A stretch of 21,295 bases of DNA from a virus. Its lineage: Duplodnaviria; Heunggongvirae; Uroviricota; Caudoviricetes. The number at the start of each line of letters is the position of its first letter. The stretch's first letter is position 1. The notes below the pieces were generated by a model that did not search any database, had not been told where the DNA came from, and was given only the letters and a program-made list of their open reading frames with translations. This document shows, piece after piece, positions 217 through 10,430 of this stretch. Made by a program: the position numbers and the translations under genes. The DNA is taken from positions 1 to 21,295 of IMG/VR virus record IMGVR_UViG_3300020046_006452, one strand, 5' to 3'.

Positions 217-1053
217 TTAAGCTTGTGTTGCACACTGTTGTTGTAGTAGTTTTACATACTTCAACATTGTTGGATAGGACACACCTAGTCGATTGCAAAG
301 CTCTACCTTAGGTGTATTTAACGATAACAATCGCTCAAGGGTTGGACGAACCTCTATCCAATTTCTCTCAAATCGTGCCCTCTTGGCTTGAGATAATTTC
401 TTCCTGTAATCTACGGAGTTGTATGTAGATGAGGGATTACTCCAATTGGCCTTAGAGGTTGCCGCGGTTTGGGCACGGTAAGCAGGATCCTGTTTCATCT
501 GCTGAAACTTAGCACTAGCCTTAAGGCCCTCACTTATGTGCTTTCGAGTTTGATCGCTCTCTTTTTTTCCTAAGTGAGACTTGCCTCCCAAACTAGCATA
601 GCGTTTTTGTGTATCTGACGGTATCACATTAAAACGATACTGTGCTCCCTGCTCTATTAGATTGGGTATGACAGATTTGCGCATAACATCAAGTCCCACC
701 TCAGAGTATATGTCCTCCCACACCTTGCCCCTCTTCTGCCTATTCACCCTCATAGCCTCCTGATTTAGGCCTCCACTTCCCATGTAAACCATATTGTAGC
801 CCTCTTCCACACATCGGTGTTGCTTCTGGTAAGCAACCTCAAGTTGATCAAGTTCTTCCTTACTGTCAATACCTTCCTGCAACACAGTCCAATCAAAACC
901 CAAAACACCGTACTTAGCGAGGGCTTTATGGAATACAGAGCGAGGGTGCTGCGAGGACTTGTGGTGTTGTTTAATGCGTTGGGCTAACGTCTTGCAGGTT
1001 TGGCCCACATACACCTTCCCATTAAGTTTGTTAGTAGCTTTGTAGATGATCAT
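217..1053 (-). CDS. GIY-YIG homing endonuclease, free-standing, with NUMOD3-like and C-terminal HTH-like DNA-binding segments
   Basis: N-terminal IIYKATNKLNGKVYVGQT (GIY-YIG), catalytic RIKQH, LEVAY and YNM motifs; HLGKKESDQTRKHISE (NUMOD3-like); VELCNRLGVSYPTMLKYV (HTH-like). Confidence 0.92.
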   Translation of the reverse strand: MIIYKATNKLNGKVYVGQTCKTLAQRIKQHHKSSQHPRSVFHKALAKYGVLGFDWTVLQEGIDSKEELDQLEVAYQKQHRCVEEGYNMVYMGSGGLNQEAMRVNRQKRGKVWEDIYSEVGLDVMRKSVIPNLIEQGAQYRFNVIPSDTQKRYASLGGKSHLGKKESDQTRKHISEGLKASAKFQQMKQDPAYRAQTAATSKANWSNPSSTYNSVDYRKKLSQAKRARFERNWIEVRPTLERLLSLNTPKVELCNRLGVSYPTMLKYVKLLQQQCATQA

Positions 1054-1073: not shown

Positions 1074-2930
1074 CTACTGAAACTTCAAGTAACCAATGAT
1101 CTTATTCATTGGCGCGAACGCTCCGGTGAGCTTAAAAAGCTTATCGTTATACTTAAACACCAAACCCTCAGTAGGAAGAATAGCACTAAAGCCGCCAATA
1201 TCATTCAATCGAGATAATTCTCGCTTGAGAAAGGAAAGGGCCTCTGGAGCGTCTGCTCCTTGAGAGGCTTTAATTTGGGCAATAGCATTCTTCAAGCTGG
1301 TTCCCATATCGCTAACACTCTGGTTGGGGTTGAGTGCTACTAGGCCTTGAATGTTACGTAGAGCGTACACTCCCAGCTTTAGGAATAGATGCTCTAGTGG
1401 CTTTGCAGCCTCCTTGCGAGTAGCCTGGACTCCAGTCTTGTCAAACTGATCAATCCAAGATCGGAAGGCTTCATTGTCCACTTGACTGCGAATGTCCCGT
1501 ATGTTAACCTGCTTGCTATCAAACCCCCAGCGACCAACTAGTTGATTACGCACTGCAGTTGGGATCTTGTATCCTTGCTTCTTGGCTTGCTCAGAAACGA
1601 AGTTAGTCCACCACTTGGCGTAGTACATTTTAACCTTGTCATTCTTCTGCAGCTTACTTTGCTCGCGGATTGAGTTAACCATTGCTAGCAGCTCATCCTT
1701 CTGTTTATCGTAGTCTGCAGACTTGGTTATACTGAGAGGGTTGGTTACCTTAATCTGGTAGGTCTTCTGGTTGTCTGCTTGTACTTGTCTTAGGGCACCA
1801 TCCAACTGCTTAGCTGCTTGTTGATCTTCGTCAGTAACATTACCTTCCTGGTCGTAGGTACGAATGTTATGTAATCGAAGTTGAGTAGTACCATAAGGAA
1901 CCACGTTAGCGGTAGCTGGGTAGAGCACTTCTAGATTAAGGAAGCGCTTACCATTCTGGAAGAACATACTACGTTGTGAGGTAGTTAGTCGATTGATTGC
2001 TGACTCCAGATCCTTCATCGCCTCAGCAAAAGCAGCTTGAATTGGTCCTCTGCCAGCGAACATATCCTCCACCTGCTTTACCGATAGGGAGTTCTCACCA
2101 AAGTTCTTAAGCTGTCCCTTATTACGAGCAGCCACTATGCGACCGTTCCTATACGATACCATCAAATTCTGACCATCCAACTTCTCCTGCACTGATTTGA
2201 TCTCACCACTTAGTACTAGTGTGATCATTGTTTCAACGTCCTGGAAGGTTAAGTCTAGGTCTTCGTACGGATGTACAAGGTGGCCAGCGGCACCTCCTTC
2301 ATTGATACGACCCTTGGAGGGCTTCAGTACATCGTACACCCGTTTGAGTAGACTTGGAGAGGTACCTGGATAACTGGTAACGAACTTGTTGAAGTTTCCA
2401 GCTGCTAAGTCTGCACGTACGGTGGAGGCACTAATTGGCTTACCCTTCAATTGATCGGGCCTATTAGCATATAGCAGAGGCTTAACGTCTAGTGGTAGAT
2501 TAACCACAACTAGACCTGGTTTAGCGTACTTACCGCCCTTAGCATGTCCAGCTGTAAACTTAACAACCCTATCGTAATCTTCCCCTTTGTTGCTCGCTGC
2601 TAACGCATACTTGCCAGGAGGTGCTGTCTCGATGTACTTGTATGAAGCTAGTAGAGGATTATCCTGTTGTACTGCTTCAACACTAACATTACTGACTCCA
2701 GTTAGTAGCAGCTTCCACACTGCCATACTCTGCTCTCTAGTGATACCATCCCTCTCCTTAGGCCCAATCAAGATCCGCACCTCTTGTACTTGGGGGTGGG
2801 ATGCATAGCGCTTAACTAGATCTAAGTGGCCTCCGTGTGGTGGCTTGAATCCACCAGGCATCAATACAACTACCTTATCTGTAGTCTGCTCTAAAAAAGC
2901 CTCAGCTAGGAAGTTGGATAGTAGACTCAT
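1074..2930 (-). CDS. Fusion protein: HxGH (cytidylyltransferase/NMNAT-like) nucleotidyltransferase plus ATP-dependent ligase-like (KxDG) domain
   Basis: N-domain has GGFKPPHGGH (H32-H35) and ISASTVR. C-domain has EKLDGQN (ligase motif I, K250), FLNLEVL (III-like), LRLHNI (IIIa-like), EGLVF (IV, E588) and FKL (V-like). The linker contains RINE|GG at aa 208-213. Confidence 0.8.
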   Translation of the reverse strand: MSLLSNFLAEAFLEQTTDKVVVLMPGGFKPPHGGHLDLVKRYASHPQVQEVRILIGPKERDGITREQSMAVWKLLLTGVSNVSVEAVQQDNPLLASYKYIETAPPGKYALAASNKGEDYDRVVKFTAGHAKGGKYAKPGLVVVNLPLDVKPLLYANRPDQLKGKPISASTVRADLAAGNFNKFVTSYPGTSPSLLKRVYDVLKPSKGRINEGGAAGHLVHPYEDLDLTFQDVETMITLVLSGEIKSVQEKLDGQNLMVSYRNGRIVAARNKGQLKNFGENSLSVKQVEDMFAGRGPIQAAFAEAMKDLESAINRLTTSQRSMFFQNGKRFLNLEVLYPATANVVPYGTTQLRLHNIRTYDQEGNVTDEDQQAAKQLDGALRQVQADNQKTYQIKVTNPLSITKSADYDKQKDELLAMVNSIREQSKLQKNDKVKMYYAKWWTNFVSEQAKKQGYKIPTAVRNQLVGRWGFDSKQVNIRDIRSQVDNEAFRSWIDQFDKTGVQATRKEAAKPLEHLFLKLGVYALRNIQGLVALNPNQSVSDMGTSLKNAIAQIKASQGADAPEALSFLKRELSRLNDIGGFSAILPTEGLVFKYNDKLFKLTGAFAPMNKIIGYLKFQ

Positions 2931-3462
2931 TACCTTTTACATAAGTATGCTGAGCCCTAAGTTGACGCTTCAAATCGATTACATCCTGCTGAAGAGCCTC
3001 AACCTTGGATATCAGATTGATTAGTACTCTGCCCACCGGTATATCTCGTAGGGATGGTATTGATTTGATCTGGATGTCATCTACCACTGCAGTACCATCC
3101 ACGAACAACCTATAGTCCTTATAGTACTTTTCATCAAGTGATTGGCCAATGTAGATCTTCTCCACATTACGATGAGGAATCAGATGGCGTGCTTCAATAT
3201 CCTTAGTGAGGGGGTTGTAGGACATATAGTGCAGAATGAAGTACACCTTATCAGTCCTCATCGCTTGATCGGTGGCGGGAGTTCCAATATGCAATGAGAA
3301 GGGGTTGCCTACGTGGTTTTCCTTAATGTGCTCAATGCTTTCCCCATTCCAACGTTGGTAGACGTTCTTGGTCTCAATTTTACCCATCACCTGCTCGTTG
3401 AACGGCATGTTTAGTATGGGGAATAGAGTTTGACAATTGCGGATGGTGCTGTTGTTAATCAT
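2902..3462 (-). CDS. Hypothetical protein with C-terminal coiled coil, probably virion-associated
   Basis: 186-aa ORF starting 2 nt after the upstream TAG; heptad pattern LINLISKVEALQQDVIDLKRQL; the last 29 nt overlap the next gene. Confidence 0.7.
   Translation of the reverse strand: MINNSTIRNCQTLFPILNMPFNEQVMGKIETKNVYQRWNGESIEHIKENHVGNPFSLHIGTPATDQAMRTDKVYFILHYMSYNPLTKDIEARHLIPHRNVEKIYIGQSLDEKYYKDYRLFVDGTAVVDDIQIKSIPSLRDIPVGRVLINLISKVEALQQDVIDLKRQLRAQHTYVKGNESTIQLPS
2941..2948 (-). promoter_or_regulatory. ATACTTAT motif, putative phage late promoter
   Basis: gcATACTTAT ends 10 nt before the ATG at 2930; the same motif precedes four other starts. Confidence 0.6.
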
Positions 3463-7247: not shown

Positions 7248-10200
7248 CTAGCAGTTTATGCAGCTGAAACCGTCCTTGCGATTGATGTTGATGATATTAT
7301 CCACCATATCCCTAACCACATCGATGTGTGAGATGATCAAACTGAATCGGAACACGTCCTTCATATAAGTGAATAGAGTGTGCATCGAGTTGAGGTTCGA
7401 GGAGTCAAGTACCCCCAAACCCTCATCAATAGCAATGAAGTCTGGTTTAGGTAGGTTTGTGGTCTTGATCAATGCAATCCGGATTGCTAGAGAGGCTACA
7501 AATCGCTCCATTCCGGAAGCTAACTCCAACGGCCAGCGGCCGCTATCATAGCCAATGAATGCATTGATATTCTTGCCGTCAGTCTCAAGTATTACAGTGA
7601 AATCAACTACCTGGGAGAGTATGTTATTGACGTAGTTTTGAATGAATGGTACCGCGCGGCTGATCAAGGTGTAGGGGATTCCATCCTTGGATACAGCCTT
7701 ACAATAGGCTTCATATACAGTCAACTTGGTCAAGAGGTCATCCACATCCTTAAGGCTTCTTCTTGCTACATCCAGCTGATGAATACTAACTTGATTGCCT
7801 GCAAAGCAGGTGCTATAATCATGTAGCACCACTTTGAGCTTACTATTGAGACCTTGTAGAGAGGTATTGTGTTGGTTGATCTGATCAGCCAACTTGGCGT
7901 TGATCTTAAGCCTCTCCTCATCCACGTAGTAGTCCGCGATCTTGGTCTCAAGTTCTACCATAGACCTCTCTTGAAGCTGGCGAGTACTATCGCAGGTCTT
8001 CCATAAATTGTGAGCTAGCTCCACAGCACGCTTTGCTTCAACTACCTCCTGCTCAGCCTGTACAATCTGCACTTTCTGGTTTATGGTGCTCTGATTAAGT
8101 TCGATGAAGTGATCTAGGTGTTGCTGCTTCTCTTGTAGCGAGGTACCTGTCTTATAGTCCTCTTCCAGCTCAATCTTAGTGGCCATGGCATCCTTAACGA
8201 ACACGTTGTTAACGCAGTACGTGCAGTTAGGATCATACTCATGCTTACTTAGGTTCGCTAACTTAGCTAGCTTGTGATCCACACTTACTTTGAGAGCTGC
8301 TAGTAAGTTAGATATGCGTGTACTCTCTTGTTGATTGCTTTGACACTGCAGTAGGATTTCCTGGTTGAAGCCCTCCTGGATTTGTGAGAGTTGTTCTACT
8401 TGCTTGGTTTGATGAGCTTGAGCCTGATCGAGTGTGATTCTCTGTAGGTCAGCTTTGGACTTGAGAGATACTAGTAGCTGTTCTAGTTGTTGCTTCTTAC
8501 TGAGTAGATCCTCTATGTCTAACCCAGTATGCTTGACTGGGTGTACTTCCTTGTTGAGTTGATTGATCTGTGCTATCTCATCCTCAATGTCAACCTCAAG
8601 TTTATCTCGCTCAGCAGCTAACTGCTGTAGGGCTACTTGTGCAAGGTCGCGGACCTGCTCCTGCTCTCGAATCACAGCATCATAGTCTTGCTTTTGGTGC
8701 ACCTCCAATTGAGCAGTAATGCTTTTGACCTCCTTATTGGCTAGCTCAAACAGCAAATCAAAAGTAGCTAGATCTAGGAAGTTGGCGAGCAACTCCTTTC
8801 GTTCACCTTGGGTCTTCTCAACGAAGTTGGAGCTGTTACCCTGCATCGATAATGCAGTCAATACAAAGTCATCAAAGGTACCCACGTAGCTTTGTATGAT
8901 CCTATCGGTATCGCGACGTTGCTCACCATTCAACGATACTGTTTCACCCTCCTGATTAACATAGGAGAAGTCAATATCGACACGCAACCTCCCAGCCAAT
9001 GGACCTTTTTTGTACCGAGAGGCTTGCTTGTGTATGGTGTACAAACATCCATCCAACTCGAATGTGAACTTACAGCTAAACCAGTCCTTCTTGTTATTAA
9101 GTACTTGATCAGCCTTACTGGCACGAGATGTATAGTCAAACAAGCAAAAGCATAGAGCGTCTAGGATGGCTGACTTGCCAGTGTGGTTGGGTGCAAATAA
9201 ACCACAAGTACCGTTTAGCTTCTCGAAGTCTATCACATTACCCTCTCCATAGGAGAACATATTGGAAAACTCAAAGTGCTTTGGTTTCCACACTACTCCT
9301 CTAGCTACCTCAGCGTGGTTAAGTTGTGAGTTTAGCTGATCACTTATTGCTAGAACTTGACTGAGGGTGAGAGGATCGATGTTCGAATCCTTATAGTAGT
9401 CTGCTATCAGCTGACGCTGAATCTGAGGATTGCGGATATCTCCTTGATAGATGCCAGATTCGATCTGATCAGAGGTACTACCTCCACCTATACGATCTAG
9501 GTCATTAACCGCTACCTCAACTACTCCATATTCCTTACGTAGAGTAGCAAGTATGTCTTTGAGTTGGTTAGATGAAGTACCCTTTATTCGCAACCTGACA
9601 TTAGTCTTGGCTGAGATAGGGAGACCTTTGGGTAGAACACCACCCTCTACGTCGATGGTATAGAAGCTGTACTGATTAGGTATGTCATGGAAAGTTACCT
9701 TATAGTCTTTAAGGTCAAGGAAAGCGTAGCCATGACCTTCAAATGACTCTCCAAAACTCTGTTGGAGGAGGCTCCCGGGATAGAATACTAGCGGATCAGA
9801 GGATACTAGTATCTGCCTCTTGTGTATATCACCCAGCAACACTAGATCAAATCCAGCAAAGGTATCCCAATCCAGTCCATGAGATATCACTAGACCACTA
9901 TCGACAGCACTATTAGCGATAGTACCGTGATACATTGCCACCTTCTTGTAGTTCTCATCATATCCCTCAGCCTCTAGTTTATCTGCGGTTGAGTACTTAC
10001 TAGGTGGATCTAGCAGTGACATTACACTAATAGCTAGATCTCCAATACAGTATACTCCAGAATCACGTAAGTAGAATACGTTAGGGTGCTTAAGAGCCTC
10101 CAGTATTGGAGTTAGTGCATCTAGTCTGTGATTGTTGTTGAGATTGGTGTCATGATTTCCAGCGATCACTATGGTGGGTACTCGATTACCAAGTTGCTCA

Positions 10201-10430
10201 AAGAACCCAGTAACCATGCTAATTAGCTCCGGACTCATGTCGGTCTTAGCATGCACAATATCACCTCCAACGGTGACAATGCTGTTAGGAGGAAGTTGAT
10301 CGACAGCTAGGTATAGCTTTTCGAACACCTCCTTATACTCCTTGTGACGCTTCCAGTTTCTGATGTGGATATCAGCCACATGGAGGATGTAATCCACTTT
10401 CTTAAGCTCACTTGCAATCCCATTTATCAT
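7248..10430 (-). CDS. Single-chain Mre11-Rad50 (SbcD-SbcC, T4 gp47-gp46-like) recombination nuclease-ATPase fusion
   Basis: Metallophosphoesterase motifs ADIH, GGDIVH, AGNHD, GDIH, YPGS. ABC-ATPase motifs: Walker A APNHTGKS, Q-loop SMQG, coiled coil with CTYC zinc hook, signature ASGME, Walker B/D-loop IAIDEGLGVLD, H-loop IISH. One uninterrupted 1060-aa frame. Confidence 0.95.
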   Translation of the reverse strand: MINGIASELKKVDYILHVADIHIRNWKRHKEYKEVFEKLYLAVDQLPPNSIVTVGGDIVHAKTDMSPELISMVTGFFEQLGNRVPTIVIAGNHDTNLNNNHRLDALTPILEALKHPNVFYLRDSGVYCIGDLAISVMSLLDPPSKYSTADKLEAEGYDENYKKVAMYHGTIANSAVDSGLVISHGLDWDTFAGFDLVLLGDIHKRQILVSSDPLVFYPGSLLQQSFGESFEGHGYAFLDLKDYKVTFHDIPNQYSFYTIDVEGGVLPKGLPISAKTNVRLRIKGTSSNQLKDILATLRKEYGVVEVAVNDLDRIGGGSTSDQIESGIYQGDIRNPQIQRQLIADYYKDSNIDPLTLSQVLAISDQLNSQLNHAEVARGVVWKPKHFEFSNMFSYGEGNVIDFEKLNGTCGLFAPNHTGKSAILDALCFCLFDYTSRASKADQVLNNKKDWFSCKFTFELDGCLYTIHKQASRYKKGPLAGRLRVDIDFSYVNQEGETVSLNGEQRRDTDRIIQSYVGTFDDFVLTALSMQGNSSNFVEKTQGERKELLANFLDLATFDLLFELANKEVKSITAQLEVHQKQDYDAVIREQEQVRDLAQVALQQLAAERDKLEVDIEDEIAQINQLNKEVHPVKHTGLDIEDLLSKKQQLEQLLVSLKSKADLQRITLDQAQAHQTKQVEQLSQIQEGFNQEILLQCQSNQQESTRISNLLAALKVSVDHKLAKLANLSKHEYDPNCTYCVNNVFVKDAMATKIELEEDYKTGTSLQEKQQHLDHFIELNQSTINQKVQIVQAEQEVVEAKRAVELAHNLWKTCDSTRQLQERSMVELETKIADYYVDEERLKINAKLADQINQHNTSLQGLNSKLKVVLHDYSTCFAGNQVSIHQLDVARRSLKDVDDLLTKLTVYEAYCKAVSKDGIPYTLISRAVPFIQNYVNNILSQVVDFTVILETDGKNINAFIGYDSGRWPLELASGMERFVASLAIRIALIKTTNLPKPDFIAIDEGLGVLDSSNLNSMHTLFTYMKDVFRFSLIISHIDVVRDMVDNIININRKDGFSCINC

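Follow-up and report, generated by a model that had tools for sequence, protein, structure and literature searches.

The open reading frame (ORF) at 1074-2930 on the minus strand (read from 2930 to 1074) of a 21,295-nucleotide stretch of phage DNA, positions 1 to 21,295 of IMG/VR virus record IMGVR_UViG_3300020046_006452 and referred to here as the window, encodes a 618-amino-acid protein. From its sequence, its structure models and the architectures of its relatives we propose that this protein, from an uncultured T4-like phage, combines two enzymes into one unit for the repair of nucleic-acid ends, that it probably acts on RNA or tRNA ends, and that it is a candidate for loading into the phage head; we put the probability of this reading at about 0.5. 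An earlier note, made from the letters of the DNA alone, had claimed two unrelated nucleotidyl-transfer folds in one polypeptide, and structure models and structural searches agree that both halves fold confidently as proposed. Every motif quoted in that note was recovered at the residues it named when motif positions were assigned by script on the 618-residue translation. Its inventory was incomplete, as it overlooked motif Ia (residues 268-272) and a helical module of about 180 residues in the C half.

1074..2930, minus strand: whole ORF, 618 amino acids plus stop.

The C-terminal RNA-ligase-like domain

Residues 212-618 are, as judged from model and motifs together, a covalent (lysyl-AMP) nucleotidyltransferase fold of RNA-ligase-like type, for which formation of a lysyl-adenosine monophosphate (AMP) intermediate is predicted. 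The features of this half are as follows.

1077..2297, minus strand: covalent nucleotidyltransferase (RNA-ligase-like) domain, residues 212-618 (AlphaFold2 model, VIA-align, conservation).
2166..2186, minus strand: motif I, EKLDGQN, residues 249-255, with the predicted AMP acceptor K250 (script, conservation, hhalign on T4 Rnl1 K99).
Residues 268-272, minus strand: motif Ia, ARNKG (script).
1923..1937, minus strand: motif III, NLEVL, residues 332-336, with E334 (script, conservation, hhalign on T4 Rnl1 NFEFV).
Residues 351-356, minus strand: motif IIIa, LRLHNI (script).
1182..1712, minus strand: all-helical module between motifs IIIa and IV, residues ~407-583 (secondary structure of the model).
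1128..1169, minus strand: motifs IV (E588, G589) and V (K597, K600), EGLVFKYNDKLFKL, residues 588-601 (script, conservation).

Six motifs of ATP-dependent ligases (I, Ia, III, IIIa, IV and V) are thus present, collinear and conserved, with EGLVF placed by script at residues 588-592 and FKL at 599-601. Across 149 representatives of clusters at ≤50% identity, D252, G253, R269, G589 and K600 are found in all 149 and K250, E334, H354 and E588 in 148, so that in so divergent a sample the motifs are not a chance pattern; the two residues singled out in the earlier note, K250 and E588, are each kept in 148 of the 149. The domain opens with GGAAGH, which belongs to a family-specific GGAxGH..HP motif whose histidine, H217, is likewise kept in 149/149.

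The AlphaFold2 model of the C domain, built on 40 diverse members, has a predicted local distance difference test (pLDDT) score of 93.3 and a predicted template-modelling score of 0.89, and the full-length model has a pLDDT of 87.8 with residues 206-215 disordered (pLDDT <50). The ligase fold, on which the proposal for residues 212-618 depended, is present in the predicted model. An exhaustive VIA-align comparison with 48,161 PDB chains places 11 RNA ligases and 2 DNA ligases in the top 13 positions (Z 9.1-6.7): NgrRnl at 9.1, REL1 at 8.5, Trl1 at 8.3, T4 Rnl1 at 8.2, Rnl2 at 8.0 and Rnl3 at 7.1-6.7, with the minimal DNA ligase Pmar-Lig at 7.8 and the ASFV DNA ligase at 7.6. These alignments cover about 190 residues each at root-mean-square deviations of 3.8-5.1 Å and span model positions 5-409; they bridge the helical module at residues ~407-583 and cover both its sides. 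The top 34 Foldseek matches to the C domain are all ligases, RNA ligases mostly, at weak E-values.

At the level of sequence the relationship is faint. Single-sequence hidden Markov model (HMM) matches are marginal (PF09414 at E 0.025, on motif I, and PHROG 562 at E 0.014), and PHROG 562 is matched by 3 of the 40 members, with a best E of 0.002. Alignment by hhalign places K99 of T4 Rnl1 (TKEDGS) on K250 and E159 (NFEFVAP) on NLEVLYP, at a probability below 1%. The NCBIfam search gave no match to the C domain, the Pfam search of the protein gave none to PF09511 (the T4 Rnl1 family) or to the DNA-ligase families PF01068 and PF01653, and nothing meaningful was matched when the C-domain profile was compared with PDB sequences; no model in Pfam, NCBIfam or PHROG covers the domain. 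The HMM and structure searches run on each half separately lead from the N half to PPAT and NMNAT, and from the C half to ligases by structure, its HMM matches being marginal.

Neither an OB fold or beta-barrel nor a motif VI is seen in the model. The protein ends 18 residues past K600, and the stretch beyond motif V, a single helix (residues 605-617), leaves no room for an OB fold, in keeping with the earlier note, which had remarked on the absence of an OB or BRCT region at this point. The helical domain that follows motif V in the T4 Rnl1 family is not present either; the helical module here precedes motif IV. That note had also read the C half as RNA-ligase-like rather than DNA-ligase-like, a reading favoured by this architecture and by the partner domains described below.

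The N-terminal HIGH nucleotidyltransferase

2316..2882, minus strand: HIGH-superfamily (PPAT/NMNAT-type) nucleotidyltransferase domain, residues 17-205 (Foldseek and profile matches).
2826..2855, minus strand: HxGH motif, GGFKPPHGGH, residues 26-35 (G26, F28, P30 and H35 invariant in a 30-sequence domain alignment).
2415..2435, minus strand: ISxTxxR motif, ISASTVR, residues 166-172 (R172 invariant and S167 almost so in the 30-sequence alignment).

By both profile and Foldseek comparison the nearest kin of residues 17-205 are NadM/archaeal NMNAT and PPAT. Foldseek matches the domain to PPAT at E 7e-5 and probability 1.0, with a TM score by target of about 0.65, and to NMNAT structures also at probability 1.0; the N-domain profile matches PPAT, the MJ0541 (M. 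jannaschii) NMNAT and NadM in the PDB at about 1e-6. The 618-residue protein alone scores 14.5 bits against PF01467 (cut-off 21), a cut-off that is exceeded in 51 relatives, and most relatives carry the NadM-type signature GRFQPxHxGH...ISGTxxR. The cut-offs of the NMN (nicotinamide mononucleotide) adenylyltransferase models TIGR01527 and NF002243 are not reached, the protein scoring 16.4 bits against 127, and the best stand-alone transferase relatives reach 29-45 bits against NMNAT equivalog and subfamily cut-offs of 127-181. Because these scores lie far under all the NMNAT equivalog cut-offs, the N half is, on sequence grounds, assigned to a HIGH nucleotidyltransferase subfamily of its own and is not demonstrably an NMNAT; adenylylation of NMN is a candidate activity.

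A K-x-x-D-x-x-R motif (K115, D118, R121; window 2568-2588, minus strand) is nearly invariant in the transferase subfamily and may mark the acceptor site. This motif is not known to occur in NMNAT or PPAT.

Coupling of the two enzymes

At least 1,753 clusters at 50% identity match the C domain at E ≤0.001, in some of which it makes up a stand-alone protein of 410-440 amino acids, while as a rule it forms the C terminus of a longer one (600-2,000 amino acids). The HIGH motif is carried by 100 of 150 representatives, and in a Pfam census of N-terminal extensions PF01467 is matched by 51 of 87. Among the best 80 loci in IMG/VR, 29 ORFs are cut by the end of a contig; in the remaining 51, which are complete, fusion to a HIGH domain is seen in 50. 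A separate GRFQPxHxGH gene lies within 2.5 kb of four of five stand-alone ligase genes, and remoter ligase-fold families in the AlphaFold DB and ESM Atlas are joined to cytidyltransferase or citrate-lyase-ligase-type domains, in the reverse order too. Because the two are fused in 50 of 51 cases, adjacent when split, and found in both orders in other ligase-fold families, their pairing is, as far as gene arrangement tells, much tighter than a loose mosaic, and the survey of homologue neighbourhoods suggested in the earlier note finds transferase and ligase forming a conserved two-enzyme unit. The upstream gene at locus L010 was considered as a hidden transferase and ruled out, as it has no HxGH motif.

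A complex prediction for the N domain against the C domain, made with alignments, gave a score of 0.00, which weighs neither for nor against binding. The ESM Atlas clusters nearest to the protein are 98-100% viral. Wastewater metagenome sequencing runs were matched with partial shares of the DNA (≤0.44), and no RNA dataset was listed in this search of sequencing runs.

We found no paper that describes this ligase-fold family, although the survey by Burroughs and Aravind 2016 (NAR 44:8525) may mention it, and no literature on DUF6267, DUF5661 or Mel-JY01, a Microcystis phage that carries a homologue; the comparative papers from the Aravind group that we consulted do not mention a transferase-ligase pairing.

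Partner domains

Several relatives carry further enzymes in the same polypeptide. CCA-adding enzyme is fused in three orders (CCA-HIGH-Lig, HIGH-CCA-Lig and CCA-Lig), a Pnk-like P-loop kinase of AAA_33/Zeta type stands ahead of the HIGH domain in a kinase-HIGH-Lig architecture, an HAD-like insert with a DFDDT motif gives HIGH-HAD-Lig, and one relative has a 2H phosphoesterase domain; DUF5661 and endonuclease-like inserts are also found. No NAMPT or Nudix partner occurs in the Pfam census of the 87 N-extensions. Taken as a set, the partner domains point to the ingredients of heal-and-seal repair of RNA, specifically tRNA. Of the three functions offered in the earlier note (tRNA or RNA repair, regeneration of NAD+-type dinucleotides, or making a dinucleotide and attaching it to nucleic-acid ends), they favour the first, that is, RNA/tRNA end repair.

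Evidence for possible packaging into the head

2901..2930, minus strand: leader MSLLSNFLAE, residues 1-10, followed by A11; resembles the T4 capsid-targeting sequence (comparison with T4 IPII and IPIII).
2298..2315, minus strand: linker KGRINE, residues 206-211, a candidate prohead-protease site before GG (pLDDT <50, conservation of the boundary).

The leaders of T4 ipII and ipIII are MKTYQEFIAE followed by A. In the capsid-targeting rule residues 4 and 7 serve for targeting and residues 8 and 10 direct processing (PMC9026906), and MSLLSNFLAE conforms to it, being hydrophobic at 4 and 7, with L/I at 8 and E at 10. Among close relatives 99%, and among distant ones 78%, have an [LI]xE motif no further in than residue 20, regardless of the domain behind it, as against 10-17% of controls. 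A similar signal stands before the C domain across the relatives, within the disordered linker, with L/I at -3 in 95%, E at -1 in 77% and GG in 99%; in stand-alone ligases the leaders shrink to as few as ten residues and end in the boundary motif [LI]xE followed by GG.

The homologous transferase gp154 of cyanophage S-CREM2 (N-domain profile match 94.8%) starts with MKNFSSFLTE and then A, and it was found in purified virions by mass spectrometry, with 3 peptides (PMC10665884); the authors of that paper state that NMNAT-like proteins recur in cyanophage virion proteomes. Mel-JY01, the sole cultured carrier of a homologue, encodes a gp21-type protease (PF03420); this protease was not found on the 85-kb parent contig of the window, which is about 50% complete. 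These observations support, without amounting to proof, the view that the 618-residue protein travels in the head as a polyprotein, is split into its two enzymes and is delivered by injection.

Comparison of the C-domain profile with S-CREM2 gp87 (DUF6267) and gp160 by hhalign gave nothing, and the link of DUF6267 to the C domain is therefore one made solely through structural rows of the ESM Atlas.

Proposed mechanism and alternatives

In the mechanism that we propose, K250 would take AMP from ATP, and the ligase half would hand it to a 5'-phosphate RNA end (AppRNA) and then seal this end to a 3'-OH; judged from motifs and model, such chemistry, from K250-AMP through AppRNA to sealing, is likely. 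RNA or tRNA ends are the most probable substrate, with broken tRNAs the likely ones because in relatives the same polypeptide also holds a CCA-adding enzyme, a Pnk-like kinase, an HAD phosphatase or a 2H phosphoesterase. The HIGH domain would move AMP from ATP onto an acceptor of the ribose-5'-phosphate type in the same pathway. HIGH enzymes make pyrophosphate links of the A(5')pp(5')X type and T4 Rnl1 accepts dinucleoside pyrophosphates, and because of this our preferred guess is that the HIGH domain would make or unmake an A(5')pp(5')X (an adenylylated 5' end, an AppN or an NAD-like dinucleotide) that the ligase could use. The activity of T4 Rnl1 on dinucleoside pyrophosphates is given in PMC13717052, citing England et al. 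1977. The ten-residue leader would load the protein into the prohead, a gp21-type protease would cut after E10 and after E211 to free the two enzymes, and both would enter the host with the DNA and act ahead of phage gene expression. A counter-defence role, put forward in the earlier note, is a possibility.

It is rather unlikely, in our estimate, that all of this adds up to a chemical relay new for nucleic-acid repair, one in which the HIGH enzyme makes A(5')pp(5')X or removes it by pyrophosphorolysis, the ligase half uses it to seal, add or restore a nucleotide at RNA ends, and the pair, placed in the capsid beforehand as a polyprotein and separated there by the prohead protease, is injected with the DNA and works ahead of any phage gene expression.

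A number of observations weigh against an RNA end-repair unit loaded into the head. The RNA-ligase Z scores (8-9) are nearly tied with those of the best DNA ligases (7.6-7.8), the sequence links to Rnl1 are marginal (hhalign probability <1%; PHROG 562 in 3/40), and the RNA-specific partners (CCA, 2H) are confined to a few percent of clusters. There is no Pnkp, Tpt1 or CCA gene in the window or on the 85-kb contig (~50% complete). In Mel-JY01 a canonical RNA ligase is encoded apart from the homologue, together with a Pnk-like kinase and next to a tRNA gene, and a canonical DNA ligase is missing; because this phage already has the one and lacks the other, the fusion may serve something other than classical tRNA repair. 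As to packaging, gp154 was detected with only 3 peptides, 19% of relatives have C or M where the proposed cleavage site calls for E, and the ligase-like S-CREM2 gp87 (DUF6267) is not among the listed virion proteins.

The near tie in Z, together with the carriers that lack a canonical DNA ligase, keeps in play a DNA-ligase role or a role apart from classical tRNA repair. The protein could be the phage's own DNA ligase, serving to join Okazaki fragments, to close nicks or to mend the injected genome, perhaps using nicotinamide adenine dinucleotide (NAD+) and with the NMNAT-like domain rebuilding NAD+ from the released NMN. The N domain is indeed nearest to NMNAT, a PF01068 or PF01653 ligase is missing from two of the three complete carrier genomes, those of Mel-JY01 (190 kb) and of LR756508 (484 kb), one of two uncultured jumbo carriers, the sole weak PF01653 match in Mel-JY01 falls inside the homologue itself, and that phage has a canonical RNA ligase of its own. 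Three genomes are, however, a small sample of carriers, and many T4-like cyanophages have no DNA ligase. Moreover, LR756500 has both this family and an NAD-dependent ligase; the CCA-adding enzyme and 2H phosphoesterase fusions are RNA-specific; and the model has neither the OB-fold domain nor the motif VI that, to our knowledge, are found in every characterised DNA ligase. We regard this role as quite unlikely. The two halves could instead be independent counter-defence activities that have no substrate in common, one an NMNAT that makes up for the NAD+ lost to NADase defences and the other an RNA ligase, put together as in the polyvalent proteins of phages. In favour of this, NadM and archaeal NMNAT are the closest named relatives of the N domain, relatives reach 2,000 amino acids with many domains, phage NMNATs are placed in NAD+ reconstitution by Osterman et al. 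2024, as that work is cited elsewhere, and the virion NMNAT-like proteins are read in this way in the cyanophage papers (PMC10665884). The N-domain scores of 16-45 bits fall well below the equivalog cut-offs of 127-181, no NAMPT or Nudix partner appears in the census, and the pairing (50 of 51 fused, neighbours when split, both orders in other ligase-fold families) is tighter than in polyvalent mosaics, all of which makes independent activities unlikely.

A further alternative concerns the acceptor. The C domain might have the ligase fold without being a polynucleotide ligase and might transfer AMP or another nucleoside monophosphate to a protein, to a small molecule or, as a cap-like modification, to the end of an RNA or DNA, with the HIGH domain supplying or recycling the donor. 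Capping enzymes share the fold (Z 5.2-5.7), the domain has an invariant GGAxGH..HP motif of its own and an unusual inserted helical module, and no above-threshold sequence link ties it to any ligase family in Pfam. Yet the capping enzymes score 3 Z units below the RNA ligases, motifs Ia (R269), IV and V show no departure from the ligase pattern, and the partner domains are end-healing enzymes; we consider a non-ligase transferase very unlikely.

Genomic surroundings

The plus strand opposite the ORF is riddled with stops. The ATG is preceded by AAGG at 7 nt, and the start of the ORF overlaps the end of an upstream 186-residue ORF by 29 nt. A T4 late promoter was considered upstream (window 2931-2960, minus strand) and rejected, as the sequence in gene orientation is CATACTTATG and not TATAAATA; the AAGG ribosome site then follows.

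The window is of phage origin, as it encodes a GIY-YIG homing endonuclease, a fused Mre11-Rad50, a primase, an endonuclease I and large virion-type proteins. The Mre11-like phosphoesterase and the Rad50/SbcC-like ATPase form one polypeptide of 1060 amino acids (window 7248-10430, minus strand; Metallophos at residues 15-204, AAA_23 at 389-628; PHROG 100 and 77). The parent contig carries 19 tRNA genes, clustered and all on the minus strand in its last 20 kb (65566-85174), which counts in favour of the RNA-repair reading. A Pfam scan of the other 96 ORFs of this contig (~50% complete) found no Pnkp, Tpt1, CCA-adding enzyme, NAMPT or second ligase, and PF19782 has no match on it. In Mel-JY01 a canonical RNA ligase of 374 amino acids, a tRNA-Leu gene and an AAA_33 kinase of 328 amino acids lie close together (locus L016, 67400-71457).

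The GIY-YIG homing endonuclease gene lies directly downstream of the ORF (window 217-1053, minus strand), and mobile elements target the same gene in relatives (P0012, P0147 and L008:5061-6008), where the two domains are separated by an endonuclease-like insert that bears a ROS_MUCR zinc finger, or an intein lies immediately ahead of motif I; in one relative a GIY-YIG gene sits between split transferase and ligase genes. Four relatives of 725-860 amino acids (P0034, P0055, P0089 and P0097) have an inter-domain insert at residues ~205-320 that contains a hydrophobic, membrane-like stretch (LPGGTIYFILI...) and has no match in Pfam.

Significance

Phages classically counter host anticodon nucleases with RNA ligases and the healing enzymes that accompany these, and such enzymes are also workhorse reagents. 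The family described here is a very large, near-exclusively viral and uncatalogued ligase-fold family, tied in almost every case to a second nucleotidyltransferase for which a role in nucleic-acid repair would be without known precedent. Its chemistry, once worked out, could reveal a new repair or end-modification step, could explain the recurring NMNAT-like proteins of cyanophage virion proteomes, and could supply new enzymes for the manipulation of RNA ends. If the protein is injected, nucleic-acid repair would join the activities that phages deliver ready-made.

Comparison with known systems

The C half is most readily compared with T4 Rnl1 (gp63) and the ligase domain of fungal Trl1, with which it shares the covalent nucleotidyltransferase fold (Z 8.2-8.3), an all-helical accessory module, the lack of an OB fold and a phage-encoded nature; motifs I and III align with those of Rnl1 (TKEDGS with EKLDGQN, NFEFVAP with NLEVLYP), and the fusion of relatives to a Pnk-like kinase and an HAD phosphatase recalls the T4 heal-and-seal pathway (Pnkp). 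It differs from Rnl1 in that the helical module precedes motif IV instead of being appended after motif V, in the lack of a PF09511 match, and in its unique N-terminal GGAxGH..HP motif and probable capsid-targeting leader. Unlike Rnl1 and Trl1, it is obligately coupled to a HIGH nucleotidyltransferase, and we know of no characterised RNA repair system that has such a partner. Naegleria/Deinococcus Rnl5, trypanosome REL1 and T4 Rnl2 give the best or near-best structural matches (Z 9.1, 8.5 and 8.0), with the weak PF09414 match on motif I, whereas these enzymes seal nicks in duplex RNA and have an N- or C-terminal accessory domain where that of the present protein is internal; identity is 12-16%.

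Like NadM/archaeal NMNAT and PPAT (CoaD), the N half has a HIGH fold of Rossmann-like type that carries HxGH and ISxTxxR motifs, most family members having the NadM-type GRFQPxHxGH. In contrast to NadM and NMNAT, it lies under the equivalog cut-offs, has its own K115-D118-R121, is fused to a ligase and shows no NAMPT or Nudix partner in the census.

The leader invites comparison with T4 IPII, IPIII and Alt, which are capsid-targeted, processed by gp21 and injected: it and the T4 leaders are ten residues long and share F at position 7, L/I at position 8 and E at position 10, with A11 next, and processing after Glu fits the rule in PMC9026906. Packaging is here read from the sequence, with mass spectrometry covering the homologous cyanophage transferase alone (PMC10665884), and the cargo, unlike that of the T4 proteins, would consist of two nucleotidyltransferases set free from a single polyprotein.

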